A DNA stretch of 64,000 nucleotides from an uncultured Gammaproteobacteria bacterium (GTDB taxonomy: Bacteria > Patescibacteriota > Patescibacteriia > Magasanikbacterales > UBA922): positions 338,111 to 402,110 of the forward strand of contig CAZQXB010000001.1 of assembly GCA_964597575.1 (NCBI GenBank), read 5' to 3'. A model generated the notes under the pieces. The model did not search any database. It was not told where the DNA came from and saw nothing but the letters and a program-made list of their open reading frames with translations. Positions 8,531 through 52,075 of the stretch are shown in pieces. Position 1 is the first letter of the stretch. Each line of letters opens with the position of its first letter. Made by a program: the position numbers and the translations under genes.

Positions 8531-9183
8531 AACCGGCATCCTTTCCCCCGTGCACCTTCTTTTCCTGTATAATGGAAAGTGCTGAAATAAATTCCTGCCG
8601 TCCACTGTATTACTTTGGTATGCCACTAGACCACCTCACCGATGAGGAGCTTGTTCGCGTCGTTTTGGAAAAAGACCCACAAGCATATAGTGAAATTATC
8701 CGCCGCTACGAAGGAAAGCTAACGCATTATGTGCGGAAGTTTATTCGTGATCCCGATGAACGGGCCGATGTTTTGCAAGATATTTTTATAAAAACATATA
8801 GAAATTTACATAGTTTTAAACCAGATAAAAAGTTTTCTTCGTGGGTGTACCGTATCGCACACAATGAGTCGATCAATGCATTAAAAAAATATGCGAAAGA
8901 AGTGGTTTCCTTGGATGAGTATGAATTTGAAATTATTGATAAAGAAATAGACGTAAAAAAAGATACCGATCACACCATTCTCCATGCAGAGATCGCGAAA
9001 GCTCTGGCGCATCTCAAGCCGAAATTTCGAGAGCCGCTCATCCTGTATTTTTTTGAAGAACGAAGTTACGATGAAATTAGTGATATCCTGCGCATTCCGA
9101 GAAGTACGGTCGGTGTTCTCCTCTTGCGCGGCAAAAAAATGCTCAAAGACATTCTCGATAAACATTCCTATGGAAAACGATAA
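8524..9183 (+). CDS. ECF-type RNA polymerase sigma factor (sigma-70 regions 2 and 4)
   Basis: Region 2 (DVLQDIFIKTYRNLHSFKPDKKFSSWVYRIAHNESINALKK) and region 4 (EPLILYFFEERSYDEISDILRIPRSTVGVLLLRGKKMLKDIL) are both present. The likely true start is Met at about 8619 (MPLDHLTDEEL); a TGTATAAT extended −10 lies at about 8565. Confidence 0.85.
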   Translation: MGKPASFPPCTFFSCIMESAEINSCRPLYYFGMPLDHLTDEELVRVVLEKDPQAYSEIIRRYEGKLTHYVRKFIRDPDERADVLQDIFIKTYRNLHSFKPDKKFSSWVYRIAHNESINALKKYAKEVVSLDEYEFEIIDKEIDVKKDTDHTILHAEIAKALAHLKPKFREPLILYFFEERSYDEISDILRIPRSTVGVLLLRGKKMLKDILDKHSYGKR

Positions 9184-10174
9184 TCGCCACACCGTAGAAC
9201 AATCGATCATGGAGAAGATTGCTGCTGGAGAAGTGAAACCCCGTTCGCGGTACATCTTTTTGGCTGAGCATGCAGCACTTGTTGTTGGATTTCTTTTTCT
9301 TCTTGTGGTAGCCGCACTTCTTTCGAGTATTGTTTTGTGGTACACCACATCGTCAGACATGTTTACCTTTTTAGCGTTCGGAAGAGAAGGGGTCCCTGCT
9401 TTTGTTGAATCACTCCCATATGCACTCATGATTGAAATAGTTTTGTGTGTCGTACTCGCGGCAGTGATTCTCCGGCATACCGACTGGTCCTACAAAAAAC
9501 CTCGTGGGTTTGTTATTTTTGCACTGGTTGGAGTTGTTTTTTTAGGAGGAAGCGCACTCGCTGCCACAAGTATTTCTGAGCGGGTGAATGCTCTTGCAGA
9601 AGCCACCCAAAAGAAGCATGAGTTTCTCCGTCCTTTTATTACCGAAGCGCCTGCGGTGCGCACTCGTGGTGTTACCGGCCGAGTGGCCGGAGTAGGGGAA
9701 GGATATGTAACGATTGAAACGGCAGCGGGCCCCATTGCGATCGATGTGGCGACTCTTCCGAATATGGGTTCAACCACTCTTATGCAAGGCGGGTATTTGA
9801 CGGTGGTTGGAAAGAATTCTGGCGAAGTATTTGAGGCTCGAAAAATCCGAATACTTGAGCAGAAAGAGGCGCCGGGGGTGCGACAGCGTGTTGAAGAACA
9901 TTTTGGCTTAGCAAACGATGAAACTTTTGTACAGAAAAGAGCTGTTATTCATCGAGAAAAGGGAAAGAAATATTGCCTGTTTACCTGTGAAAAAGAAAAA
10001 AAAGAGTTGTCGTACTGTGAAGAGTGGTGCGCGGCTCGGTTTCGTACAGGTCCTGAAGATTTGAAACCCTCGCCACTGCTCGAATCTGCTGAGGTTGCAC
10101 CAAGAGAGCGCTCCAGTCAAAAAGAAGAGCAACAAAACCGTAAAGGACCACCTCAATCTTCTTCATATGAGTGA
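9170..10174 (+). CDS. putative membrane anti-sigma factor (multi-TM, co-transcribed with the ECF sigma)
   Basis: The likely start MENDNRH overlaps the sigma stop. Three hydrophobic helices precede a soluble C-terminal domain. The assignment rests on position and is inferred; the long ORF 8984–10174 is an out-of-frame N-terminal extension over the sigma gene. Confidence 0.5.
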   Translation: MENDNRHTVEQSIMEKIAAGEVKPRSRYIFLAEHAALVVGFLFLLVVAALLSSIVLWYTTSSDMFTFLAFGREGVPAFVESLPYALMIEIVLCVVLAAVILRHTDWSYKKPRGFVIFALVGVVFLGGSALAATSISERVNALAEATQKKHEFLRPFITEAPAVRTRGVTGRVAGVGEGYVTIETAAGPIAIDVATLPNMGSTTLMQGGYLTVVGKNSGEVFEARKIRILEQKEAPGVRQRVEEHFGLANDETFVQKRAVIHREKGKKYCLFTCEKEKKELSYCEEWCAARFRTGPEDLKPSPLLESAEVAPRERSSQKEEQQNRKGPPQSSSYE

Positions 10175-12940: not shown

Positions 12941-14296
12941 TTAGGCGTGGCGGATAAGATCACTCATTGAACCGACCGGTAAAACCGTCAGTCCGGAAAT
13001 GGGTTTCGTTGGTGCCGCACTTTTTGGGGTAATAACTCGAGTCATTTTTAAATTCAAACATTCTTTGAGGCGTTTCTCTGCTTGGCGGACACTTCGTACT
13101 TCGCCACCCAAGCCAACCTCGCCAAATACTGCCATGTCATTGCCGAGTGCTTTGTCTTTGTATGCGCTCGCGACGGCGAGTGCGACTGCCAGGTCGGCTG
13201 CAGGTTCAGATGCTTTAATACCCCCAACCACATTTACATGAACATCGTATTGGCCAAGGGGAAGCCCGGCCCGGCGCTCCAGCACTGCAAGGAGCATGTG
13301 GAGACGGTTCACATCAAAACCGCTCGCTTTTCTTACGGGGTAGCCGAACATGGTTTTAGTCACCAAGGCCTGAATTTCTACAAGAAGGGGACGTGTACCT
13401 TCGAGTAAACAGGTAATGACTGACCCCGGCACGCTTTCTCCGCGTTCTTTCATCATGGCAAGGGAGGGGTTGGTTACTTCTTTTAATCCAAGTTCCGTCA
13501 TGTCGAACATCCCCACTTCATCAGTTGAGCCAAAACGGTTTTTCACTGCACGCAAGATACGCATATTGTGGTGGCGGTCGCCCTCAAGATAGAGAACCGT
13601 ATCTACTAAGTGTTCTAATGTTTTTGGTCCAGCCACATTCCCGTCTTTCGTCACATGTCCAATAAGAATAACGGTTGTACCAGAATGTTTAGCTGCGGTA
13701 AGGAGTTGGACGGTTGCGGCGCGTACCTGTGTAATATTTCCGGGTTCGCCAGGCACTTTATCGGAAAAGAGGGTTTGAATAGAATCGACAATAGCGAGAG
13801 GCGGCTTGGTTTGGCGAATCGTTTCAGCAATGGCTTCAACCATGGTGGCGTTTCCCAGTTGAATATCCTTTGTACCAAGCCCCAGGCGGTGAGCGCGGAG
13901 GGTTATTTGTTCTACAGATTCTTCTCCAGAAATATATACTGTTTTTGGAATAAGGCTGGCAAGTTGAAGAGAGAGTGTGGATTTTCCAATGCCAGGTTCA
14001 CCGCCCAAAAGAAGGAGACTTCCTGGTACAAATCCACCGCCAAGAACACGATCAAGCTCCTGTAGGTTGGTCGTGAGTCGCGCTGCTGCGTCTTGTTGTA
14101 TGTCTTTTAGTGCCGTAACTGGAACTGTGGGGTAGCTACCTTGACCGCTATCACGTGTCTGAAGGTTCATCGGAACCGCTTCTTCGGTGACTGATCCCCA
14201 TTCTCCGCACTCTAAACAGCGCCCAGTCCATTTTTGGAACTGAGCGCCGCATTTACTACAGGCGAATATGGATTTGGGAATTTTTTTGGCGGCCAT
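12941..14296 (-). CDS. radA: DNA repair protein RadA/Sms
   Basis: An N-terminal zinc ribbon (CSKCGAQFQKWTGRCLECGEWGS) is followed by a RecA-like ATPase (LLLGGEPGIGKSTLSLQ) and the KNRFG motif, with a Lon-like C-terminus. Confidence 0.9.
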   Translation of the reverse strand: MAAKKIPKSIFACSKCGAQFQKWTGRCLECGEWGSVTEEAVPMNLQTRDSGQGSYPTVPVTALKDIQQDAAARLTTNLQELDRVLGGGFVPGSLLLLGGEPGIGKSTLSLQLASLIPKTVYISGEESVEQITLRAHRLGLGTKDIQLGNATMVEAIAETIRQTKPPLAIVDSIQTLFSDKVPGEPGNITQVRAATVQLLTAAKHSGTTVILIGHVTKDGNVAGPKTLEHLVDTVLYLEGDRHHNMRILRAVKNRFGSTDEVGMFDMTELGLKEVTNPSLAMMKERGESVPGSVITCLLEGTRPLLVEIQALVTKTMFGYPVRKASGFDVNRLHMLLAVLERRAGLPLGQYDVHVNVVGGIKASEPAADLAVALAVASAYKDKALGNDMAVFGEVGLGGEVRSVRQAEKRLKECLNLKMTRVITPKSAAPTKPISGLTVLPVGSMSDLIRHA

Positions 14297-14311: not shown

Positions 14312-15580
14312 TTACCGTGCGCAAGGTGGAGGAGTATTGTCTCGGTATATTCCACCATTAGTATTTTGGTAAAATTCGTAAATCAGTCGACACACTTGCC
14401 CGGTATCGCACGTTCTCATGTTTCTAAGAGCATAATTGAATGCCCCCGTTCCTCCGTGATGGCCAACATATGCCAGATAGTAGACAGACTCTGGGGTACA
14501 GGTGTTTCCAAACGTTCGTTGAATTTTTTGTAAATTCATACGCAGGTAGCCTGTCCCAACCATGGTGCTCACTTCAGCGTTTTTAAGCGACTCATGAGCT
14601 GGGTTTCTCGCTGCACTACAGCCTTTTCCACGAATAATTCCCCCTCTGGTGCAATAGTCAGATAACCGTGCTCCAACGGCTTCGAAGCAACTATTCCTTT
14701 TGGTCTGAAACAGACCGGCGTAACAGCTCTCTTTGTTGACTGCATTTGGATTTTCTCGCGATTCTACCTGGGCGATTGCCTTCAGTAGGCGATAGTCAGC
14801 CGTCAGACAGTTAGCGTACTTCTTCAGAAGGTCCTCATCGTACGATTGTTGTGGCTCTCCATTTTTTCCGATTAAACCCGGGTTATCGAGTGGGCAGGCA
14901 TTAGAATCGATTGGTTTATTCAGTTGGGCACCGGCGGCATATTGGGCAGCGCGTAAGGCACCGTTATGATTTTCTTGAGCGATATCTGAGGCTGTCCATT
15001 TTCTATCACTGTTAGGGTTGGCTGTGATTTTACTTCGTATTGGAGATGCAACAGACTCATCGAGCGGAGGACCATGATAATCAAATTCGATTTCGCTTTC
15101 GTTAATATAGGGAATTGCCAAGGCTCGAAAACGCACCAATTCTGGGTTAATGGCGTATAAAAGAGAGTAAGAGCCCAGAACTAAAAGGAGGCCAGTTACG
15201 GCGTTCGTAATTCTTCCTTTGGCTTGACTAATCGTATCCGGGCTTCCACCAGAAATACTCCACTGAAAACCGCTGATGATAATAATGATGACGGCTACAA
15301 CACCCGAGATGCCGACAGCATAGCGATATATGGCTGCCAAGTATTCCGCAAGAAACGGAATTTGGAGAAATAACTGCCCGTCACCATTTTTTTCAGAACT
15401 TTGTTTCAGAATACTTTCGTCAGTCGTGAACTGAAGTCCGGGGATGGCAATGTTTGGGTCTGGAACAATAAAATCAACATTGTCCGCTACATTGTCTTGT
15501 GCGAAAAGCGCTGTTGGTAAAAAAAGCGTACAGGTGCTGAGGATGCAAAGGGTAAATAGAATTTGACGAAAGCGAGGCAT
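14312..15580 (-). CDS. secreted two-helix (VirB2/TrbC pilin-like) module fused to a family-1 lytic transglycosylase (SLT) domain
   Basis: A signal peptide is followed by PDPNIAIPG and LQIPFLAEYLAAIYRYAVGISGVVAVIIIIISGF…AVTGLLLVLGSYSLLYAINPELV (two hydrophobic helices). The C-terminus carries the SLT signature LLKAIAQVESRENPNAVNKESCYAGLFQ, with ten Cys in the C-terminal domain. Confidence 0.8.
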   Translation of the reverse strand: MPRFRQILFTLCILSTCTLFLPTALFAQDNVADNVDFIVPDPNIAIPGLQFTTDESILKQSSEKNGDGQLFLQIPFLAEYLAAIYRYAVGISGVVAVIIIIISGFQWSISGGSPDTISQAKGRITNAVTGLLLVLGSYSLLYAINPELVRFRALAIPYINESEIEFDYHGPPLDESVASPIRSKITANPNSDRKWTASDIAQENHNGALRAAQYAAGAQLNKPIDSNACPLDNPGLIGKNGEPQQSYDEDLLKKYANCLTADYRLLKAIAQVESRENPNAVNKESCYAGLFQTKRNSCFEAVGARLSDYCTRGGIIRGKGCSAARNPAHESLKNAEVSTMVGTGYLRMNLQKIQRTFGNTCTPESVYYLAYVGHHGGTGAFNYALRNMRTCDTGQVCRLIYEFYQNTNGGIYRDNTPPPCAR

Positions 15581-15586
15581 ACGAAA

Positions 15587-16732
15587 TCAAGGAGATTGTG
15601 GTGCGCGACGGATCCAAGTAAACGGATATGGGTTTCTTCTAATTTTGGCAAAATCAGCAAAGTTTTTTATCTTTGGATTAGCGTTTGGCTGGCGACCCCC
15701 GTCTCCTCCGGCTGCCTCAATCGTTTTTCCATCGCCGATGTACATGATGACGTGGCCAATCGTTTTTCCAGCGTCTCCCGCTTTCCATCCGAGTAAGTCT
15801 CCGGGTTGGAGCGCTCTTCCGTTTACCGTGTTTGTTTCATAATTAATCGAAGGGGTGCCGTCAGAGAGGTTTGGTTCGATTCTTTCTGATTGTGAACCAA
15901 ATATGTTCGCTGTTCCGCCGGGTAATGCGGGAAGTCCTGCACAATCGTATACATATGCTAGCATGCCTGAGCAGTCAAAACAAATATTTCCCTCCGGGCA
16001 GTAGTTGTTGTACTTCGTATATGCCGAATTGGTTTCAGAGTAGGGAGGAGGGCCACCCTTTCCGCCAAAACGATAGGCTACATGACCCTCAAGACTTTTT
16101 ATGATTTGTGGGACGGCTTCAATTCCCCCGGTTTTAGGGCAGAAGAGAGTGGTAGCAAGACCTTGTTCCCTCAAAAAATTTTCATTCGTTACGCGGGAAA
16201 CGATCGGGCGATTACTGTCGCCGCCTTCTTGGTACTCTAAATTTTTAGTAAGGATGTAGGGCACTTCAAGTGCGTAAAATCGAACCAGGTTTGGATTGAT
16301 CGCGTAGAGAATGCTGTAGGACCCTAAAAGGATAATGAGACCGGTAATTCCGTTGGTGATTCTTTTTTTTGCACCACTAATCGTTTCCGGGCTTCCTCCT
16401 GAGGCTGCCCACTGAAACCCGCCAAGAATGATTACGATAACGGCTATGATTCCGGAAATCCCAAGGGCATAGCGGTATATCCCGCGAATATATTCTCCTA
16501 AGAAGGGGATTTGAAGGATAATTCTACCGTCACGTGCATGGCGCTCGGCTGCCCTGCGTTTTATTTCAGCAGCCTCAGTAAACGAGATGCCAGGAATGTT
16601 AATATTCGGATCCGGCGTTATAATTGTAACATCGTCTACGGGGTTGCCGCTTTGGGCAATTCCCGCTTGTGGCAAAATAATTCCGGTAAGAAGAATGATG
16701 CTATAAAGAAAAGGGGAGAATATTTTTTTCAT
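15587..16732 (-). CDS. paralog of the upstream gene: same pilin-like N-module fused to an NlpC/P60 peptidoglycan endopeptidase domain
   Basis: The start was moved to MKKIFSPFLY (residue 62 of the track ORF). The N-module is about 70 % identical to its neighbour (ITPDPNINIPG; LQIPFLGEYIRGIYRYALGISGIIAVIVIILGGF…GLIILLGSYSILYAINPNLV). The C-terminus matches NlpC/P60 (CFDCSGMLAYVYDCAGLP…LQPGDLLGW…GHVIMYIGDGKTIEA). Confidence 0.8.
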   Translation of the reverse strand: MKKIFSPFLYSIILLTGIILPQAGIAQSGNPVDDVTIITPDPNINIPGISFTEAAEIKRRAAERHARDGRIILQIPFLGEYIRGIYRYALGISGIIAVIVIILGGFQWAASGGSPETISGAKKRITNGITGLIILLGSYSILYAINPNLVRFYALEVPYILTKNLEYQEGGDSNRPIVSRVTNENFLREQGLATTLFCPKTGGIEAVPQIIKSLEGHVAYRFGGKGGPPPYSETNSAYTKYNNYCPEGNICFDCSGMLAYVYDCAGLPALPGGTANIFGSQSERIEPNLSDGTPSINYETNTVNGRALQPGDLLGWKAGDAGKTIGHVIMYIGDGKTIEAAGGDGGRQPNANPKIKNFADFAKIRRNPYPFTWIRRAPQSP

Positions 16733-16739
16733 AGCAACG

Positions 16740-17384
16740 TTATAAACCGAGCAATGCCTCCCACCCTTCAATGGTTCGGGGGGTTTCAACTTGTTTGTTA
16801 TCGATAAAGAGCGTTGGTACTTCCTGTATACGGAGTGCGGTTGCAATTTGTTTGGTGGTGTCAAGTTCGCTTTGAACAGATGCACTCGTGGCGCATGCGG
16901 TGATTCTTTCCGCATTCAGCCCTGCTGCCACCACAGCCGCACTAATTGCTTCTTCAGAGACATTGTTTCCATTTTCAAAAATCGCTCGGGTATACAATTC
17001 AAATTTTCCTTGTTTTGCAGCACATAGGCCGTAGAGGTGTGCCTGGTCTGAGGGGGTTGGAATTCGAACCACCGGTAAGCTCTTCCAAATCATTTTTATT
17101 TTTCCAGGATGTTTGTTGAGTACAAGCCAAAACATTTGCATGCTTTCAGCGCATGCGGCACAGCCAAAATCTTCAAATGCAACAATTGTTTTGAGTGCGC
17201 GTTTGTCACCGATCACTGGGTCAAATGGAAGAATGGGAATGGCCACTTCAGTGCGATTCTCTTCGCCTGTATATTCATCCTCTGGATAGAGGGGTTCATA
17301 CTGACTGATGCGAAAGGCTAAAACACCAAGAGCAATGAGAATGGCAGGGCCAAAAGTAAAGAGAAGTTGTTTGTTCGTGATCAT
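16740..17384 (-). CDS. membrane-anchored DsbA-like thiol:disulfide oxidoreductase (thioredoxin fold, CxxC = CAAC)
   Basis: An N-terminal TM helix precedes …IVAFEDFGCAACAESMQMFW… and a DsbA-like C-terminus (…IQEVPTLFIDNKQ). Confidence 0.7.
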   Translation of the reverse strand: MITNKQLLFTFGPAILIALGVLAFRISQYEPLYPEDEYTGEENRTEVAIPILPFDPVIGDKRALKTIVAFEDFGCAACAESMQMFWLVLNKHPGKIKMIWKSLPVVRIPTPSDQAHLYGLCAAKQGKFELYTRAIFENGNNVSEEAISAAVVAAGLNAERITACATSASVQSELDTTKQIATALRIQEVPTLFIDNKQVETPRTIEGWEALLGL

Positions 17385-18613
17385 AGGGAAACACGGAAGA
17401 TACCGTCTTGATTTTTATCAGTAAAGTACACGGCGTTTTCGGTTTCGTTTACGGTGATTGTGTCGATGGTGTGGGTTTCTTCAAGGGTAATTTCCGTCTG
17501 GATACCTGTTTGTATGTCAATTCGAACGAGCCGATCAGGAACCGTTGAGGCAATTGCTGGGGCAAGCCCAGCGCCGGTTTCGAGCTCGGTTGGTACGCCA
17601 CAGTACAGGAATCGTTCGCTTTGAAATGAGCATTTCGACGCCCAGGTGTTAATATTGAGGGCACTTCTATTTTCTCCTAAACTCTCGATATTTCCATCAA
17701 CAACCCAGAGTTCGGGCTTAAAGTCTGAGCGTCCAGAGTACACGCTATAGAGAAGTTTGTTTCCTTGAGGAGACCACTTTGTTTCAAGTCCGCGACCCTC
17801 CACAATGGTCGAAGGAAAATTTTCATTTCGTTCTCCCAAGAAGAGGACTTCTTGGCGGTCAGCGCCTAATTGGTCGCCGGTTCGGGCAATGCCCACAATT
17901 TGTCGATTCGGTGACCAGTCCACAATAACTTTGTCTGCATTTGCCCCAAGAGGGAGAACCGCTGTTACGCCAGTACCGTCAGGGTTCGCGGTTACAAGAA
18001 AGCGATTTTCTTCCGAATATCCAATACTTTTTGCAATAATTTTTTCTCCTCCTGGGGAGAAAGCAAAATCAGTCCATTGTTTTGGTAGAGTGACTTGGCG
18101 TTTGGTGTCAAAATTGTAATAAATATTTGAGCCATCAGGGTATTCCATGATCGATTCATTTGTTTTTGATGACCAAGCCACATCTTGGACGTTATAAAAA
18201 ACTTGATCAGAGAGTGCCGCGAGTGTTCCATTCGGAAGAGCGCGGTAAAATTGCCCGTTGGTTTTATTGTAAAAATGAACACCGCCCCCAGATACTTTCG
18301 TCGTGCCTAGAGCAGGGTCTATGACAATTTTTTCTTCCCTTGGTGTGTCGGTCGTTCTTCCTCCAACCGGAACAGGTGTGGGTGTGCCTGGAGAAACAGG
18401 CAGAGGGGCGACTCCGGTTCCTGGTGTTCGACCGGTTGTAGTACCCGTGCCCGCCTGGGGTAACCCTCCGGGTGAAACAGGCTCTACAATGCCCGGCGGG
18501 GAAACAGGGGCAAGTTTTGATTTAAAAAATACCCGATACAGTGCGTACCCAAGAATAATTACCGCGAGAACAAATACGGCGGCAAAGGCAATGCGTTTTT
18601 GTTGGTCATCCAT
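17381..18613 (-). CDS. membrane-anchored TolB-like beta-propeller protein (PD40 repeats) with a Pro/Thr/Gly-rich linker
   Basis: An N-terminal TM helix (AFAAVFVLAVIILGYALY) and a P/T/G-rich spacer are followed by repeated FSPGGEKI / WSPNRQIV / WSPQGNKLLY PD40-like blades. Confidence 0.65.
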   Translation of the reverse strand: MDDQQKRIAFAAVFVLAVIILGYALYRVFFKSKLAPVSPPGIVEPVSPGGLPQAGTGTTTGRTPGTGVAPLPVSPGTPTPVPVGGRTTDTPREEKIVIDPALGTTKVSGGGVHFYNKTNGQFYRALPNGTLAALSDQVFYNVQDVAWSSKTNESIMEYPDGSNIYYNFDTKRQVTLPKQWTDFAFSPGGEKIIAKSIGYSEENRFLVTANPDGTGVTAVLPLGANADKVIVDWSPNRQIVGIARTGDQLGADRQEVLFLGERNENFPSTIVEGRGLETKWSPQGNKLLYSVYSGRSDFKPELWVVDGNIESLGENRSALNINTWASKCSFQSERFLYCGVPTELETGAGLAPAIASTVPDRLVRIDIQTGIQTEITLEETHTIDTITVNETENAVYFTDKNQDGIFRVSL

Positions 18614-18657: not shown

Positions 18658-19536
18658 TTACGACTGCTGACTTTCCAGGTATTGCCGTCGCTCTTGGCGA
18701 ATTCTCTGCTCTTCCTTGGTAATTTCTTCCACCGACGCCGTTGTCTTTTCATTTATTTTTTTTGCCGCTTCTTTCGCGTTTCGGTCTGTCTTGGCTGCTT
18801 TCGCGGGCATCTCACGTATTTCCCAGCCCAGTTTGCGTGAGTATGCGTGAAGGAGGACTCCGACCGCTGCGCCATCGAAAACGGCTGCGAGCCCGTCAAA
18901 GATCCACTTGCGAATTCTTTTTTTCATCATCTTTCGTAAGAGATCGGTTTTCCCTCTGGTTATTGAGGCCACTGCCCCTAACTCTGTTTGGTCGCTCTGT
19001 TGCTGAAGGCTGCGCTGTTTGGCAAGTTTGTTCAGTCGTTCGTCGTATCCTCTGAGAACTGGATCGTTTTGGTTCGTGCCATTTCTTCCATCACCCTCTT
19101 CATTTGATTCGCTCCCACCGCTGCCTCCCGAAACCCGGCTGTTTGATTCTGTTTTTTGATTAGCAAATTGTTCAGATTCAGGAACAGAGAAGGGGTTCTC
19201 AGCTGCGGATTTTTTTGGTTGGTTCGGGTCACCATCTTGAGTGAGCGCTGGGTCTGAATTTACGGAACTCGATGTGGTTGGAGCCACACCTTCGCTTGTG
19301 GGCTGTGGTGAAGCACGTCGTTGCCCGCCTTCGTCTTTTCCCACAAACGCCGGGGAGGCAGTTCCTGTACCACGACTTGAGTTTGCGTAGCCTTTGGGAT
19401 TCGTTTGAATTTCAGATATTGTTTTCTGCCGGCTTTGTTCGGCACGAGCTTCGGCTGATGCGAGGGTCGCCAACGATAGGCCGTAGGCGAGGAATAATTT
19501 TTTAAGCGGGTTCCCCGCACGGTGTAGGGCGGCCAT
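18658..19536 (-). CDS. secreted low-complexity (S/T/Q/E/G-rich) protein with a C-terminal hydrophobic helix
   Basis: A signal-peptide-like N-terminus (LFLAYGLSLATLASAEA) is followed by a long disordered region and a C-terminal WIFDGLAAVFDGAAVGVLLHAY helix. Codon periodicity is plausible, but confidence that it is a real gene is only moderate. Confidence 0.45.
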   Translation of the reverse strand: MAALHRAGNPLKKLFLAYGLSLATLASAEARAEQSRQKTISEIQTNPKGYANSSRGTGTASPAFVGKDEGGQRRASPQPTSEGVAPTTSSSVNSDPALTQDGDPNQPKKSAAENPFSVPESEQFANQKTESNSRVSGGSGGSESNEEGDGRNGTNQNDPVLRGYDERLNKLAKQRSLQQQSDQTELGAVASITRGKTDLLRKMMKKRIRKWIFDGLAAVFDGAAVGVLLHAYSRKLGWEIREMPAKAAKTDRNAKEAAKKINEKTTASVEEITKEEQRIRQERRQYLESQQS

Positions 19537-34268: not shown

Positions 34269-35195
34269 ATGGTTCGTTCCATCATCAGCGCGCTCGTCGC
34301 GGTCGTTCTCTGCCTCTTCACGAGCGCCCCGGCCTTCGGGCTGGCGCTCGGCATGGTCGGTGACGAGCAGAAGCTCGACATCCCCGTGTCCGCGTTCAAC
34401 GGCAACGTCGATTCCCGCGCCAGCATCATGGTGCAGGACACCTCTCGGCCTCTCGACACCTCGGCGATCAGCGCCATGCAGGTCCAGTGGGATCGGGCGG
34501 AGCGCCGTTCTCACGTCCACGCCAAGCGAGGTACTCGTCCCTTCAGGTGCCCGCAGTACTACACGAATCGTGATCTGGCCGAGACGATGGCGTTCACGGA
34601 GCGCCGTCTCTCAGACTCGTCTGTCACGGACGATGCTCGGCCCACGCTCTACGGCATGCGCTATGCCGGAACGTTCTGTTCGCTCGGCAAGCCTGCCAAG
34701 CGTATGAACAAGTCGGATCCGACGCCCGCTGCGGACGAGATCGCTCTCATGATCCCTGTCACGAAGCCGGCACCCCTCAGCCCTCCGAAGACCGGCGGCA
34801 TGCGCCTCGATCCCAACGGCGACACCAACTCGGATTTGACCGATAGCGACTATCTCCGTACGTTCGGTGTCTCGATGAACCTCGTCGCACCGAGTCCGAT
34901 CCAGGAGGTCGTCGGCTCGCGTCAGCTCATGGGCACGGACGAGAATGATCCGTCCTGCGCTACCCTCGAGATCCTCTTGGGCCGTGATCACCACCCTCTC
35001 GGTGTGGTCCCGACCCCCGTCTCTTCTCGTTCGTCCGGCGATCGCGTCTCCCTCTTGTCGAATCTCGACCCGGAAAATGCTGGTGCACATGTCTCGCCAA
35101 AGGAGCTCGCCCGACTGATCGGCTTCCGCGCCGCCACATACAAGGAATCGAGCGGCAACTATAGTTATCACTGGTCACCTGGTCCGCCGCGCTAA
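34269..35195 (+). CDS. secreted hypothetical protein encoded in a high-GC island (probable horizontally acquired gene)
   Basis: The 308-aa ORF has an N-terminal signal peptide (MVRSIISALVAVVLCLFTSAPAFG). GC is about 65–70 % with GC-rich third codon positions, against about 45 % in flanking genes. Overlapping ORFs on both strands are stop-free artefacts of the GC-rich DNA. Confidence 0.6.
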   Translation: MVRSIISALVAVVLCLFTSAPAFGLALGMVGDEQKLDIPVSAFNGNVDSRASIMVQDTSRPLDTSAISAMQVQWDRAERRSHVHAKRGTRPFRCPQYYTNRDLAETMAFTERRLSDSSVTDDARPTLYGMRYAGTFCSLGKPAKRMNKSDPTPAADEIALMIPVTKPAPLSPPKTGGMRLDPNGDTNSDLTDSDYLRTFGVSMNLVAPSPIQEVVGSRQLMGTDENDPSCATLEILLGRDHHPLGVVPTPVSSRSSGDRVSLLSNLDPENAGAHVSPKELARLIGFRAATYKESSGNYSYHWSPGPPR

Positions 35196-36515: not shown

Positions 36516-38594
36516 TTAGAAGCTGAACATCGACACGGTGTTATTTTCGAGAACATAAATTGTTCTCTTTGTCTCGTCAACAACCATGCCGGTTGGTTCC
36601 TTCCACGCATCGGCCACGTATTGTGCTTTCATAACCCCATTCTTATCAAGAACGACCACTCGTGCATTTTTTGTATCGAGGACGTAGATATTGCTCAGGT
36701 CCGTATAGGTCCAAATCAATCCACTGCCTGATAAAACAGGGTCGACATCTTGAAGAGAAAAGGCCTGTTCGATTCCGGCAGAAAATTTCCTTATTTTTCC
36801 GGTAGTCTCCATGATAAAAATATCTCCGTCAATCGTAAACGAGTTTGCGTTCGTCAATGGCTCATTCAACTGTTTTACCCAAGTTGTCCCTTTGTCATAG
36901 CCGGCCTGAGTTTTGTTGTGTCGATATATTTGGTTCGTTTCAGTATCAAGTGCGTATAGACGTTGATTATATACCGCCACGTCAACTAAACTTTTTTCTG
37001 GCGCACCGCTCGCAATTTCCACAAGCGCGACAGTACCACTTTCTTTATCGTAATTGGCGAGTCGGTTATTTTCCGCGATAAAGAGAATATTTTCTCCTTC
37101 TTTTGGTACGTAGTGTTTTTTGAGTCCCTTTACAACGCCAATATCCTTTCTTGTGATGGCCTTACTGCTCATGTCAACCATATGCAGGGCAGTGTCGTTT
37201 GGCCCGTAAGCAATGAGTGTGTTTTGAAGCCGGGCCAGAAGAGTTACGTTCGTTTCTGGTCGATCAGTAGTAAGTTTTGCCACAAGTGTTGGAGAGACTT
37301 TGGTCACGTTTCGTAACCGTTCACGCTGTGCAGCCACCCGTTCCAAAAGTTCTGTTCGTTTTGCTTTCTTCTCTCCTGGATCGTCGGGTAAGTTTTGGGC
37401 CATGGTGTCGGCCTCCCCAATGAGCGCAAGTGCTTTGGCTTTATCATTATAAATCGCACTTGCTTCTGCTGCGGTTATTTTGTCGGTAATTGCCTGAACC
37501 GTATCAAGATACGTTTGTGCCACTTGTTCTCGTTCGGCTCGAATGCGATTCACGAAAACAGTCCCTGCAAAGATTGCCAGCAAAAGAATCATGACAATCG
37601 CTAAAATTTTGGTGGTGATAGGGAGGTTGAGAAGATATTGCCTTTTTTCTTCAACGGTATGCGACATGCTTTCAAGGACACTTTCGCGTTGTCCGCCCCA
37701 ATTGGTAATGATAAGAACCCCGCCAAAGAGTAGCTTTCCTGTACCGATAAGGAGCCCCTTGATAAGTTTGGCGAATCCGACCACGATTCTGGCCATGGCG
37801 ACACCAAAACCAGAAAGAATATCTCCGCGAGGTGGTACATCCCGTGTCCGTTTTTGAGGACGAGACATCATTTCCACTTCTTCTGGCTCTTCAATGCCAT
37901 CATCTGTGACAGGAGCTCCCACTCCTTTATTCCCAAGTGTTTCCTCCATTTGTAAAAGAACCCCGCCAAACCCAAGACCGCTGTCCATGTTCTCGAGTGT
38001 TTCTTGGATATTTGCGGCTGCCACTCTCGGTGGTTTTTTTGCAAGCATTTTTTTCATGCGTTCTGGCGGAATATAGTCTGCGGTTCGAGGAGTGACAGCG
38101 TAGAGTATGTCGCCCTTTCCTACCTCGCCTTGCATGATGGCTGGAAAAAGTTGTGTGCCACTCGTGTCAGCGTCGCCAAGAGTGATGTCTTCGAGCTCAT
38201 CATTTTTGCTGTAAAGAAGATGGATGGCGTGTTCTCCGTGGGTGGCAAAAAGAAGGGACTGCCCTGAAATGGCGCCAACAACAATCGAGAGGCGGACTTT
38301 ACGATCGAGAATAAGGTGGTGGCTACGGCGATTGACATATTCAACCGCAAGTTCAAAAGGATGTTTCTCGCCATCGGTTGGAAGAGTGTAATATTGTTTC
38401 TCAAGAGTAGAGATAAGTTCCTGGCATGCTTCAATTGTTTCGGTGGTGCCGTGATCCACTTCAATCACGGCAAAAAAGTAACCATGAGCAAGTTCACGAG
38501 CGGTTGAGGGTTCACTTACGTGAAGAAGAACGTGCAAACGCTCAGAGTCGTTTCCTGATACGAAAAATTCATGAAGGTCAATTCGAGGTGGCAT
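36516..38594 (-). CDS. membrane protein with an N-terminal PP2C/SpoIIE-like phosphatase-like domain and a C-terminal extracytoplasmic domain
   Basis: The N-terminal roughly 250 aa resemble PPM-type phosphatases (FFAVIEVDHG…SIVVGAISGQSLLFATHGEHAIHLLYS…DILYAVTPRT). A TM helix (ILAIVMILLLAIFAGTVFV) is followed by a C-terminal region of about 350 aa that is probably beta-rich. Confidence 0.6.
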   Translation of the reverse strand: MPPRIDLHEFFVSGNDSERLHVLLHVSEPSTARELAHGYFFAVIEVDHGTTETIEACQELISTLEKQYYTLPTDGEKHPFELAVEYVNRRSHHLILDRKVRLSIVVGAISGQSLLFATHGEHAIHLLYSKNDELEDITLGDADTSGTQLFPAIMQGEVGKGDILYAVTPRTADYIPPERMKKMLAKKPPRVAAANIQETLENMDSGLGFGGVLLQMEETLGNKGVGAPVTDDGIEEPEEVEMMSRPQKRTRDVPPRGDILSGFGVAMARIVVGFAKLIKGLLIGTGKLLFGGVLIITNWGGQRESVLESMSHTVEEKRQYLLNLPITTKILAIVMILLLAIFAGTVFVNRIRAEREQVAQTYLDTVQAITDKITAAEASAIYNDKAKALALIGEADTMAQNLPDDPGEKKAKRTELLERVAAQRERLRNVTKVSPTLVAKLTTDRPETNVTLLARLQNTLIAYGPNDTALHMVDMSSKAITRKDIGVVKGLKKHYVPKEGENILFIAENNRLANYDKESGTVALVEIASGAPEKSLVDVAVYNQRLYALDTETNQIYRHNKTQAGYDKGTTWVKQLNEPLTNANSFTIDGDIFIMETTGKIRKFSAGIEQAFSLQDVDPVLSGSGLIWTYTDLSNIYVLDTKNARVVVLDKNGVMKAQYVADAWKEPTGMVVDETKRTIYVLENNTVSMFSF

Positions 38595-39289: not shown

Positions 39290-39688
39290 ATGATACTGGT
39301 TCTTTCCCCGGAAGATGGTCGTGCTCTGTCTGTTCTCTCTGTATCTGAAAAAGATGGGGAAGAGGGGCTTTTGACATTTACGAAAACAGTGGATACGCAT
39401 AGCTCATGGCTCTCTGTAGTCCACGAAGCGCTTCAGTCATTTGGGGTTGAACTAAAAGATATTACCGCAGTCGTTGTGGTTTCTGGTGCCACGAGTTTTA
39501 CCGGCAGTCGGGTGGCATATACTATTTCGAACACGCTGGCTTATGCACTTTCTGTTCCGATTGCTGAAATATCAAAAGAACAGTGTACTGAATCCGAAAT
39601 ACGCCAAACGGTAAAAGGAGCATCTCTTCACACCTACGTTTTACCTCAGTACACGAGCGAGCCAAATATTGGACGTGTCTCTCTTTAG
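39290..39688 (+). CDS. tsaB: short TsaB/YeaZ-like protein (N-terminal Kae1/TsaB fold only)
   Basis: MILVLSPEDGRALSVLSV…ITAVVVVSGATSFTGSRVAYTISNTLAYALSVPI matches the TsaB N-terminal half. At 132 aa it is short, and it overlaps the next gene by 20 nt. Confidence 0.5.
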   Translation: MILVLSPEDGRALSVLSVSEKDGEEGLLTFTKTVDTHSSWLSVVHEALQSFGVELKDITAVVVVSGATSFTGSRVAYTISNTLAYALSVPIAEISKEQCTESEIRQTVKGASLHTYVLPQYTSEPNIGRVSL

Positions 39689-41195
39689 ATCTATGCTTAC
39701 CCCGTACGGACGCTATCGTTTGTACGAGATCCTTCCCGGACTCTCAATTTGGGCAACACTGATTGGGGCTTTTGTGCTTTCCGCTCTGTTTCCGCTCGCC
39801 ATGATTTATGCCATTATTCTGTTTGACATTTACTGGGTACTGAAAGTATTTCATTATTCTTTCTACTTACTCGTGGCTTGGCGCCGGTTTCATATTGTCC
39901 GGCATGTTGATTGGGAAACAAAATTAAAGCAGGAAATTCCGGCCTGGAAAACGAAAAAGCATCTTATCTTTCTTACTCTTTATAATGAATCATGGGATGT
40001 GGTCGAAACGGCACTCGCAAGTATTGCAACCGCGGTATACGACCCTTCTGTTTTTACGATTGTGGTCTGTGGGGAGGCGCGTACGGCTGAACATTATCAT
40101 GATATTTTTCCTAAAATAAAAAATCGTTTTGCCGGAGCATTTGCAGATATTGTCGGTACGCTTCACCCGACAGACTTGCCCGACGAGATTCCGGGAAAAG
40201 GGTCGAACTTGCATTATGCAGAAGGGCAGATGGTTTCGTACGTCGAAAAGAAAAAGTGGAATCCAGATGATGTGATCGTAACCATTTTTGATATTGATAC
40301 CGTGTGTCACGGTTCATACTTTGCGTACCTTACTTATATCTACTGTACTCACCCTAATCCAACTCGAAGTTCGTATCAGCCGGTGGCGCTTTATAATAAT
40401 AATATGTGGGAGTCTCCGGCCATGCTTCGGCTTATGGCGTTCGGAACCACCTTTTGGCTCATGACGGCGCTGGCTCGCCAAGATTCGCTCGTTACTTTTT
40501 CATCGCATTCCATGAGCTGGCGAGCCATTCTTGATGCCGGATTTCACGATAAAAGAATTGTGAGTGAGGATTCTCGTATTTTTTATCAGTGCTATTTAGC
40601 CTATGATGGAAAGTATGAAGTAACACCGCTCTATATTCCGGTATCAATGGACACGGTGCGCGATGATCGCTGGTGGCAAAGCATGGTGAATTTGTATAAA
40701 CAGCAGCGTCGTTGGGCGTGGGGGACTGAACACATTCCGTTTCTTTTGTATGAATTCAAGAAAAAAGGAAACCGCATTCCGTGGTACAGTAAGGTAAAAT
40801 GGCTTTTTATGGAGTGGGAAGGAAAATGGTCTTGGTGCACTGTTGCGCTTTTGATTACCGTGCTCGGGCGGCTCCCACTTTACCTGGCCCCAGAGTCCGT
40901 TCGTCAGAGTGCTCTCTATTTTAATGCGCCGACCATTCTTGAGACACTCATGACGTTAGCCATGGTTGGGCTCTTATTGTCGGCGGTTTGCAGTTTTCCA
41001 CTTCTGCCTAAAAAACCAGCATCGCACCCGCGCCATGCCTATGTTATGATGGTCGTACAGTGGTTACTCCTCCCATTTTCTCTTATTTTTGTGAGCGCCA
41101 TTCCCGCGATTGATGCGGTAACGCATCTGATGCGAGGAAAATATCTCGGGTTTAATGTTTCTCAAAAGAAGCGCCAAACTCCAAATTCTCTATGA
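39669..41195 (+). CDS. membrane-bound family-2 glycosyltransferase (cellulose/hyaluronan-synthase-like, processive type)
   Basis: TM helices flank a GT-A domain with DID and the Q(Q/R)xRW motif (QQRRWAWG), plus C-terminal TM helices. Confidence 0.75.
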   Translation: MDVSLFRSMLTPYGRYRLYEILPGLSIWATLIGAFVLSALFPLAMIYAIILFDIYWVLKVFHYSFYLLVAWRRFHIVRHVDWETKLKQEIPAWKTKKHLIFLTLYNESWDVVETALASIATAVYDPSVFTIVVCGEARTAEHYHDIFPKIKNRFAGAFADIVGTLHPTDLPDEIPGKGSNLHYAEGQMVSYVEKKKWNPDDVIVTIFDIDTVCHGSYFAYLTYIYCTHPNPTRSSYQPVALYNNNMWESPAMLRLMAFGTTFWLMTALARQDSLVTFSSHSMSWRAILDAGFHDKRIVSEDSRIFYQCYLAYDGKYEVTPLYIPVSMDTVRDDRWWQSMVNLYKQQRRWAWGTEHIPFLLYEFKKKGNRIPWYSKVKWLFMEWEGKWSWCTVALLITVLGRLPLYLAPESVRQSALYFNAPTILETLMTLAMVGLLLSAVCSFPLLPKKPASHPRHAYVMMVVQWLLLPFSLIFVSAIPAIDAVTHLMRGKYLGFNVSQKKRQTPNSL

Positions 41196-51030: not shown

Positions 51031-51073
51031 TTTGCCGGGTTACAGATGTGACCCAGAAAAGAGATACCTGAAA

Positions 51074-52075
51074 GTGATAACCGCAGTTTGGCGGCTCCTC
51101 GGAGCCGCAATATTCTTCTTCGTTGTGGCACTCTCTGCGTGCGGCAACGACCCCGTGGATTCGGGGGGGGCGCCGACGACGCCGGCGGTCGAGAGCTTCA
51201 TGAAGAGTCTCTCCGAGGCGTGCCCCGTGGGCAACCTGGAGAGCAAGGCCGAGCGCGACGCGTGCGCGTGGGCTCTCCCTGCTCGGGTGGCCGGGGTGCA
51301 GAACCCGCGGCGCCAGATCGTGTGGGGTGGTCAGAAGGAGGGGGCGGGCCTCCTCCCCTATGACATCGGTCACGTGACCGAGTTCGACAGCGCGCGCGTC
51401 TTCCCGATGCTCTATCTGTCGACGTTCGCGTTCGAGAGCCGCTACACCTGCACCCGGGAGGTCAATCCGAACGACGGCATCGAATACGAGGTCTGCCAAG
51501 TTCCGAGCCGTTTCCGCGAGCTCGATCCAGGCGAGTACGCGTACCCGTTCTGGCACGCACCAGGAAAGATCAAGTCGTACACGCAGGCAAGGAAGATCAT
51601 CTTCTACTTCCAGGCTGGGGTTTGGGTCGCAGCGCTCCGGTCGAACGATCTCGACCCGAACCGTATCGTGACTCCTCGTGAAGATCGTGGGTGGGAGTGG
51701 GAGGAGGATGGGGAGAGGCAGCCTCGGGTGACCAGTTTCACCTACGTGTTCTCGCCAGGGAACGAGTACGTGGCAGAGCTGAACACGGCGTATCAGGCAC
51801 TCGCGCTCGCAGAGCGAGATCGGAACTGCATGAGCTGCCACGAGCCGGACAACAAGGGTGCGATGCCCAAGCTCGAGCTGCTGCGCTATCCGGTTCAGGC
51901 ACTGTCGGGCAGGAAGGATCTGATCCGGATCCTCGAGGACAATACGATGCCCCCTGCCGTTGGCATCGGGGATTCCGAGGCGCTCGACAGGATGAAGGCA
52001 CTCGCGCTCGAGTTCAATCGTGTCGCGGACAAGGCGTACGCCTGGGAAGATGGGGTAGGGAGAGGGGGGGACTGA
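51074..52075 (+). CDS. putative lipoprotein with a CxxCH heme-c-type motif, encoded in a second high-GC island
   Basis: A GTG start is proposed, because the track start lies inside the −10 box. The protein has a lipobox (VVALSAC) and CMSCHEP near the C-terminus. GC is about 65–70 % with a strong GC third-position bias. Confidence 0.55.
   Translation: MITAVWRLLGAAIFFFVVALSACGNDPVDSGGAPTTPAVESFMKSLSEACPVGNLESKAERDACAWALPARVAGVQNPRRQIVWGGQKEGAGLLPYDIGHVTEFDSARVFPMLYLSTFAFESRYTCTREVNPNDGIEYEVCQVPSRFRELDPGEYAYPFWHAPGKIKSYTQARKIIFYFQAGVWVAALRSNDLDPNRIVTPREDRGWEWEEDGERQPRVTSFTYVFSPGNEYVAELNTAYQALALAERDRNCMSCHEPDNKGAMPKLELLRYPVQALSGRKDLIRILEDNTMPPAVGIGDSEALDRMKALALEFNRVADKAYAWEDGVGRGGD

Follow-up and report, generated by a model that had tools for sequence, protein, structure and literature searches.

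The window analysed here, a 64-kb (64,000-nucleotide) stretch of contig CAZQXB010000001.1 (assembly GCA_964597575.1), carries two adjacent minus-strand genes, each joining a signal peptide and a pilin-like module to a predicted cell-wall hydrolase. They are co-directional and lie 6 nt apart. The upstream gene (15587..16732, −) encodes 381 amino acids (aa) arranged as signal peptide, pilin-like module, linker and NlpC/P60 domain (Pfam PF18895 at aa 80–136 and PF00877 at aa 219–343). The downstream gene (14312..15580, −) encodes 422 aa arranged as signal peptide, pilin-like module, disordered linker and family-1 lytic transglycosylase, hereafter SLT (PF18895 at aa 80–135 and PF01464 at aa 253–388). 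An initial annotation had reported tandem paralogs with a series of characteristic motifs, and both open reading frames (ORFs) and all of the quoted motifs were recovered on the minus strand at these coordinates. Its statement that the two wall-cleaving activities reside on separate genes, both fused to a pilin-like anchor, also agrees with the ORFs and the Pfam assignments. A protein identical to the upstream product (P0014, 381 aa) is present in public assembly gene calls, and the exact proteins of both genes (P0004 and P0014) occur together on one NCBI contig of 913,817 bp. The upstream ORF stays open for 61 more codons (16733–16915, −), to an ATG at 16915, and so extended it overlaps the 3′ end of the neighbouring DsbA-like gene; public calls start at 16732, and neither start is preceded by a clear ribosome-binding site.

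The common N-terminal module comprises 138 residues in both fusions, spanning aa 28–166 of the upstream protein (16235..16651, −; module hidden Markov model (HMM) positions 1–138, E 1e-74) and aa 28–165 of the downstream protein (15086..15499, −; E 9e-77). Preceding it are predicted Sec signal peptides at aa 1–26 (MKKIF...AGIA/QS; 16655..16732, −; hydrophobic segment aa 3–26) and aa 1–27 (...TALFA/QD; 15500..15580, −; hydrophobic segment aa 6–27, modelled as a helix at 3–18), with putative cleavage sites (slashes) judged by eye from the A-x-A rule. In both proteins the module matches PF18895 (T4SS_pilin) above the gathering score of 26.6 (34.8 and 34.9 bits, E about 2e-8). A search of Pfam and NCBIfam for a competing family gave none, and assignment to holins or an unrelated anchor family was rejected. 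The NCBIfam entry NF045849 (Mbov_0395 family, pilin-like conjugal transfer proteins of mycoplasma integrative and conjugative elements) matches the hairpin region with E values of 1e-5 and 4e-3, at scores (25.1 and 16.9 bits) under its curated cut-off of 40. These matches hint at a wider monoderm pilin-like family; Mbov_0395 proteins resemble the present module in the hairpin region but are small (about 80 profile positions), carry no enzyme and are reached only by such sub-cut-off scores. Relatives of the module additionally gave sub-threshold matches to DUF6112 (E 0.033) and FtsK_4TM (E 0.03). Fold searches for a likeness to solved conjugative pilins were non-specific.

AlphaFold modelling of the 422-aa protein (mean per-residue confidence, pLDDT, 83.5) placed a strand at 70–74, two helices at 76–109 and 114–144, a second strand at 154–158, a disordered linker at 164–188 and a helical domain at 190–422. 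Along the downstream module, a PDPNIxIPG extension is followed by the strand LQIPF, the first helix, the loop SGGSPDTISQAKGR, the second helix, the motif INPELVRF and the strand (I)PYI. Modelled alone with an alignment of 90 sequences, the module again formed a two-helix hairpin (pLDDT 86.9), at whose open end the strand LQIPF pairs with (I)PYI in a small two-stranded sheet. Family match and model together support a VirB2/TrbC-type pilin-like hairpin. Both helices are hydrophobic by hydropathy, and the loop SGGSPDTISQAKGR is net positive (K+R 2 versus D+E 1); together with the hairpin model, this charge predicts an N-out/C-out topology, in which both protein ends would lie outside the cytoplasmic membrane. 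Independent support comes from relatives that carry enzymes on either side of the hairpin, with Exo_endo_phos, Metallophos or M15_4 domains at the N-terminus and VanY, SLT and others at the C-terminus.

Similarity between the two fusions is restricted to their N-terminal 185 residues, which align by BLASTP with 95 of 185 positions identical (51%), 70% positives and an E value of 2e-58, so that the modules match well past the signal peptide. Identity rises to 72.5% over the 80 aa of the LQIPF...LVRF block, close to the figure of about 70% first given for it. The corresponding DNA is 66% identical, with 89% identity at second and 39% at third codon positions; this pattern indicates an old duplicate under purifying selection. 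A bootstrapped neighbour-joining tree of 48 modules from SLT and NlpC fusions grouped the SLT-type modules P0004–P0007 and the NlpC-type modules P0014 and P0015 as one clade in all 100 replicates, within which each type was monophyletic (bootstrap 98 for SLT, 96 for NlpC); P0004 and P0014 paired in only one replicate of 100. The module was thus duplicated before these genomes diverged and has never been homogenised since. Recent tandem duplication and gene conversion were ruled out by the third-position identity and by the separate monophyly of the two types. The clade is consistent with a duplication after which the C-terminal domain was swapped, as suggested in the initial annotation, although the pair is no one-off but one state of a large combinatorial family. 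Among the other ORFs of the window, the module HMM found no further copy.

Both C-terminal assignments hold above the Pfam thresholds, with conserved catalytic residues. The SLT match (PF01464) scores 33.2 bits against a threshold of 21.3, and the NlpC/P60 match (PF00877) 39.4 bits against 23. The lytic transglycosylase domain (aa about 190–422; 14315..15013, −) is modelled as a lysozyme-like helical fold with pLDDT >90, and its best Foldseek matches in the PDB are MltE (EmtA; 4hjy, probability 0.99, E 0.027) and then MltF. It aligns with EmtA across the ES and GLxQ motifs (E273–S274 and G289-LFQ292), and E273–S274, GLFQ (289–292) and Y371 are kept in at least 85% of homologues, a figure of at least 85–90% applying to the first two motifs. 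The NlpC/P60 catalytic domain (aa 219–343; 15704..16078, −) aligns with solved NlpC/P60 chains at FDCSG and HV.Y.G, and its C254 (in DCSG) and H327 (in GHV) are kept in at least 85% of 39 homologues. Known EmtA/MltE lytic transglycosylases and C40 endopeptidases share with the present domains the motifs ES...GLxQ and Cys...His and, for the former, the transglycosylase fold; the present domains differ from them in weak sequence similarity (E 0.02–0.1), in cysteine content (10 cysteines in the lytic transglycosylase domain, 5 in NlpC/P60) and in the manner of tethering. From these signatures, the transglycosylase would cut glycan strands and the NlpC/P60 enzyme peptide stems.

The breadth of the family emerged from an exhaustive profile search of 50%-identity representative clusters with the 138-position module; a word-index search with the module alone had given 3 relatives. 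At E<=1e-3 the profile matched 33,010 representatives, of which 262 remained at E<=1e-30, and the best 150 are almost all 350–1100 aa long. Long fusion proteins with the module thereby make up about 150 or more clusters at 50% identity. In 161 of 165 full-module proteins the module is followed by more than 100 aa, and in 77 it is preceded by more than 100 as well. In a Pfam census of the 150 best profile matches, the cargo comprised SLT (20), Amidase_2 (19), VanY (19), Peptidase_M15_4 (11), Peptidase_C39_2 (11), Lipase_GDSL_2 (10), NlpC/P60 (8), M23 (5), M15 (5), CHAP (2), Glucosaminidase (1) and Exo_endo_phos (1). This diversity shows that the module is a general carrier of murein-active enzymes and no peculiarity of the present pair. 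Named relatives belong to Candidatus Magasanikbacteria or Patescibacteria, and to judge by these names the source of the window is most likely a Magasanikbacteria-like patescibacterium of the class ABY1. Module scans yielded 6 loci in the genome collection and 9 in metagenomes. No relatives of the module were found in plasmid, phage or IMG/VR viral collections, and a mobile-element or phage-lysin origin was rejected on that ground.

When all retrieved related loci were mapped with the module HMM and a set of reference proteins, a fixed chromosomal slot emerged. In every extended-module locus with visible flanks, the order is ClpB ... U410 (a conserved 410-aa protein), a DsbA-like gene, one or two fusion genes, RadA and, on the opposite strand, RecG. 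In the window, the 214-aa DsbA-like thioredoxin (16740..17384, −; Pfam Thioredoxin_4 and DSBA) lies 7 nt upstream of the first fusion gene, and the stop of U410 (17381..18613, −) overlaps the DsbA-like start by 4 nt. RadA/Sms (12941..14296, −), identified by Pfam, is co-directional and follows the SLT fusion gene after 15 nt; it usually borders the slot on the downstream side and counts as context, not as part of the functional set. A DsbA-like gene stands directly upstream of the fusion gene or genes in nearly every related locus with a visible upstream flank. Since the U410/DsbA pair precedes the fusions in essentially every related locus, U410, the DsbA-like protein and the fusion proteins are suggested to form a three-part functional unit. 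At two loci (L020 and L021), no RadA match was found between the SLT fusion gene and RecG, which shows that RadA is not an obligatory border of the slot. No small ORFs lie between slot genes in the related loci. A promoter and terminator scan of 12.8–20 kb gave counts not above the shuffled expectation, so operon structure is judged only from the 6–15-nt gaps and the one 4-nt overlap.

Within this slot the enzymes change from genome to genome, with at least 10 cargo domain types in the family. The combination NlpC/P60 plus SLT occurs in the window and at L004; a VanY-like LAS peptidase accompanied by a different, AYNAG-type SLT at L005, L018 and L019; SLT only at L002, L003, L020 and L021; SLT plus a Metallophos-module-VanY protein at L012; VanY at L013; and NlpC/P60 plus M15_4 at L016. 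Other loci encode module-GDSL (L011), module-CHAP (L022), M15_4-module (L023), module-M23 (L024), module-Amidase_2 (L006, L009 and L026) or a C39-like domain behind the module (L008), and L010 combines Exo_endo_phos-module, a propeller gene and module-VanY. The modules of P0007 and P0009 are 88% identical while their tails give no BLAST match; those of P0015 and P0038 are 79% identical although one bears NlpC/P60 and the other a VanY-like peptidase. In both pairs, identity in a sliding window stays at 80–96% up to ...PY(I/V) and then falls to 10–20%, and this sharp fall indicates cassette exchange at a defined junction. The module is consistently the better conserved part, at 64–70% identity versus 41–48% for the cargo of SLT orthologues and 65% versus 56–60% for NlpC. 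Free-standing 131-aa pilins (P0002 and P0003) align to the hairpin core only and stop a few residues past the shared INPEL motif; the PxPxIxIPG extension at the N-terminus and the strands IPFLxEY and (I/V)PY(I/V) are specific to the fused subfamily.

Several individual loci merit mention. The propeller gene of L010 (11189–12271) encodes 360 aa with a weak beta-propeller signal and sits between two module fusions in the slot. At L007 (850–2904), an SLT and a GDSL/SGNH esterase stand together behind the same module, an arrangement that recalls O-acetyl-peptidoglycan esterase acting ahead of lytic transglycosylase. Three loci (L006, CAYSQU010000029.1; L009, CAZKAD010000039.1; L011, CAZFUL010000001.1) come from records titled 'uncultured Gammaproteobacteria bacterium', although their U410-DsbA-fusion-RadA slot is of the Patescibacteria type; these titles are probably taxonomically wrong. 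The U410–DsbA-like pair (window 16740–18613, −) was seen in the same position at L002, L008–L013 and L019–L026. U410 itself begins with a hydrophobic N-terminal segment and includes a stretch rich in Pro, Thr and Gly, and no family match to it was found in Pfam, NCBIfam or the PDB.

A connection with the type IV secretion system (T4SS) is indicated by relatives outside the slot. The closest free-standing relative, P0002 (131 aa; L014), immediately follows VirB4 in a locus that also holds PrgI and a TraC-like gene and adjoins dnaA, which is the canonical gene order of a patescibacterial T4SS locus (PMC12102498). P0037 and P0041 are homologues of the upstream gene product (E 1e-51 and 1e-48) that combine an N-terminal domain, a pilin core and NlpC/P60, and their loci (L015 and L017) read PrgI, TraC-like, VirB4, a 342-aa gene, the fusion, a 533-aa gene and dnaA. 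The 342-aa and 533-aa genes flanking these core-module NlpC fusions (L015 8972–9997 and 11663–13264; L017 8969–9997 and 11610–13211) have neither a Pfam match nor the module and are candidate T4SS-associated components. Relatives with repeated pilin cores, as many as 11 per polypeptide, match both PF18895 and PF04956 (the latter at E 1e-28 to 1e-42), which ties the family to classical TrbC/VirB2. The matches below the cut-off to the mycoplasma Mbov_0395 family also count towards a T4SS link. Three such proteins, P0084 (1147 aa), P0166 (966 aa) and P0088 (822 aa), carry 7–11 tandem cores with the look of a 'pilin polyprotein' and reach best E values of 1e-80 (PF18895) and 1e-42 (PF04956).

Published work supplies a close comparison. 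The essential T4SS cluster of Southlakia epibionticum encodes six PF18895 pilins (SEML1_0014–0019; PMC10633639, text and Table S2) and, as separate multi-domain proteins, lysozyme/cysteine-peptidase and M15-like products (SEML1_0006 and 0007; PMC10633639, PMC12102498). Pilins and wall hydrolases that are separate there are fused here, which argues in the manner of a Rosetta-stone inference that they act together. The S. epibionticum-type pilins belong to the same Pfam family, share the signal peptide and the two-helix hairpin with a short loop, and likewise occur as tandem genes. They differ in being 125–185-aa stand-alone proteins of a T4SS cluster, whereas the present proteins have 381 and 422 aa, occupy a housekeeping slot between DsbA and RadA, and extend the hairpin by an N-terminal extension and a two-stranded clasp followed by a 215–257-aa enzyme. 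T4SS loci of the class ABY1 often include recG, radA and comF (PMC12102498). Reviews describe the role of the T4SS and pilin arrays of Patescibacteria as unknown (PMC11665869, PMC12857230); both are essential in the sole species tested genetically.

Taken together, the data favour, at about even probability, extracytoplasmic wall hydrolases mounted on a pilin hairpin, forming a polymorphic cargo family with a functional link to the pilin/T4SS system of Patescibacteria. Each protein would be exported by Sec and lose its signal peptide, after which the 138-residue module would insert as a two-helix hairpin, clasped on the outer side by the small sheet of the LQIPF and (I/V)PY(I/V) strands. A flexible linker of about 25–45 residues joins the module to the peptidoglycan hydrolase, and with both hairpin ends outside, the cysteine-rich enzymes would be tethered at the outer face of the membrane. 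Given the 10 and 5 cargo cysteines and the syntenic DsbA-like gene, we infer extracytoplasmic oxidative folding, with the DsbA-like protein encoded just upstream probably oxidising the cargo enzymes. Once folded, one enzyme would cut the glycan strands of murein and the other the peptide stems. The locus is polymorphic across Magasanikbacteria-like Patescibacteria through retention of the module and recombination of the enzyme cassette just after the (I/V)PY(I/V) strand. As homology to VirB4-adjacent pilins and conservation above that of the enzymes suggest more than a passive anchor, the module probably brings the hydrolases into the patescibacterial T4SS, either its pilin pool or its apparatus. 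The outcome would be local opening of the wall, either the cell's own for the apparatus, the host's at the contact site, or both.

Several observations weigh against a tie to the T4SS. Within the 64-kb window neither VirB4 nor VirB6 was found, nor a coupling protein, a relaxase or an integrase, and in the loci seen the extended-module subfamily is always in a housekeeping neighbourhood and never beside VirB4. The pilin identity of the module is a matter of HMM similarity only: the VirB2/TrbC-like two-helix module first proposed is borne out by PF18895 and by the AlphaFold hairpin but not by PF04956 (TrbC/VirB2), which stays below threshold in both fusions (13.6 and 12.0 versus 27.9 bits), and the family profile matched no solved pilin among PDB sequences. 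A globular cargo of 215–257 residues per subunit is hard to fit in a filament of VirB2 type, with so short a linker the enzymes could simply be working on the cell's own wall, and in the literature on the patescibacterial T4SS no pilus has yet been shown in the phylum.

These points lend themselves to a plainer account, possible though on the unlikely side, in which the proteins are housekeeping autolysins that remodel the cell's own wall in growth and division, with no tie to the T4SS and with the hairpin as a mere anchor of pilin ancestry. It accommodates the stable slot among ClpB, DsbA-like, RadA and RecG in all loci examined, the window free of T4SS genes, the lack of plasmid, phage or viral relatives and of an immunity-like neighbour at intergenic gaps of 6–15 nt, and the short disordered linker (164–188), which suits a nearby own wall. 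A passive anchor should drift, however, yet the module is better conserved than the enzymes, its extracytoplasmic motifs and loop included; the orthologous slot holds non-equivalent enzymes (glycosidase, amidase, DD-carboxypeptidase-type, endopeptidase, esterase and phosphoesterase), which is unusual for core autolysins; and close relatives of both the module and the NlpC cargo are encoded beside VirB4. Were the module only an anchor, the slot would still be a tidy case of cassette exchange among autolysins in reduced genomes. Going further towards the pilus than the favoured reading, the pilin could serve as a display scaffold, an unlikely but consequential arrangement in which subunits bearing interchangeable hydrolases sit in a pilus or its tip and the appendage drills the host or own wall. 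The exposed ends of such subunits would present murein hydrolases and sometimes esterases or phosphoesterases, and the DsbA–RadA slot would then be a polymorphic 'warhead' locus adapting an epibiont to different host walls. A related proposal, that the fusions are cargo-bearing minor pilins whose module leaves the membrane and is built into or caps a VirB2-type pilus, carrying hydrolases to the host envelope in epibiotic attack, is quite improbable. It draws on the homology to pilins next to VirB4, on a fusion point that coincides with the pilin C-terminus (P0002 and P0003 end a few residues past INPEL), on module conservation strong enough to suggest specific protein contacts, and on polymorphic C-terminal cargo as expected of host-facing functions; moreover, breaching of host envelopes by lytic transglycosylases has been proposed for Patescibacteria (PMC11665869), and the S. 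epibionticum pilin array and the hydrolases of its T4SS cluster are essential (PMC10633639, PMC12102498). It is opposed by the undemonstrated pilus, the non-specific fold searches, the conflict between bulky cargo and helical packing of pilin subunits, and the position of extended-module genes outside T4SS loci.

The junction invites comparison with polymorphic toxins, in which reading the module would be a trafficking or pro-domain and the hydrolase would be freed near (I/V)PY(I/V) to kill or lyse other bacteria. A conserved N-terminus, a sharp recombination junction and unrelated C-termini on near-identical modules are the formal signature of such toxins, and the cargo, mainly wall-degrading with some esterases and phosphoesterases, would suit them. 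We nevertheless regard this as very improbable: the pair has no immunity-like gene beside it, its neighbours being the DsbA-like gene and RadA, and no orphan cassette array downstream; no processing protease or cleavage motif was identified; and the locus is syntenic, with one or two genes only. The family further departs from polymorphic toxins in cargo that is nearly all murein-active and in an N-terminus that is a membrane hairpin and not a known toxin-export domain. Scarcely credible is a role of the pair as VirB1-like hydrolases in a conjugative, DNA-transferring T4SS, after the pattern of CwlT (ICEBs1), TraG (pIP501), PrgK (pCF10) and TcpG (pCW3). Those monoderm conjugation hydrolases, like the present proteins as predicted, are membrane-anchored and extracytoplasmic and combine glycan cleavage with NlpC/P60- or CHAP-type cleavage (PMC12102498), but there a single polypeptide, held by a simple N-terminal anchor and encoded inside conjugative elements, carries both activities, whereas here the activities reside on two genes, on pilin-like hairpins, at a chromosomal non-T4SS site and with cargo varying by genome. 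The window contains none of relaxase, coupling protein, VirB4 or VirB6, nor an integrase or mobile-element borders; its synteny is chromosomal and conserved, the module has no plasmid relatives, and most patescibacterial T4SS clusters are themselves without relaxases (PMC12102498). Of the T4SS/conjugation logic in the initial annotation, what stands is that relatives adjoin VirB4; the locus itself is housekeeping only, and the plasmid, phage and viral collections gave no relatives of the module.

With hydrolases acting on a pilin hairpin within the T4SS system as the favoured reading, the locus offers a testable hypothesis, namely that pilin-system proteins and murein hydrolases constitute one working unit at the cell envelope. 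The covalent fusion, the better-conserved module and the enzyme swaps at a fixed locus are what render this question testable. The architecture had been called undescribed, and within the literature searched this holds: full-text searches gave no mention of pilin-hydrolase fusions or of the DsbA–RadA slot, with most subscription journals outside coverage. The joining of a pilin-type module to wall-cutting enzymes is nonetheless abundant in sequence databases, with precomputed Pfam hits. A published rule for VirB2 accepts PF18895 matches with i-E<0.001 and coverage above 50% (PMC12102498), and both present genes would be expected to pass it. Surveys that count PF18895 hits as 'VirB2 pilins' would accordingly be expected to include these 350–1100-aa enzymes.

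The remainder of the window is of housekeeping character. Besides RecG, RadA and ClpB, it encodes TopA (at the left edge), DprA, Pth, Der, LytR, a sigma factor, HtpX, LemA and RseP, together with PheST, DnaE, TsaD, L10/L12, MreB, RRF, a ProS-type tRNA synthetase, Fpg and tRNAs. Between ClpB and U410 lies a 292-aa ORF (18658–19536, −) with no Pfam match; among related loci this interval varies in size (111+314, 416 and 771 aa). Other large ORFs of the window with no Pfam match encode 692 aa (36516–38594, −), 508 aa (39669–41195, +) and 396 aa (8984–10174, +). Two stretches (34269–35195, + and 51032–52075, +) have a guanine-cytosine content of 0.53 versus about 0.46 and contain several overlapping ORFs; the longest ORFs of both are signal-peptide or lipoprotein-like, with no Pfam family and no Rfam match. 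The 889-aa product encoded at 58613–61282 (+) has two DUF11 repeats and is probably a large protein of the cell surface.

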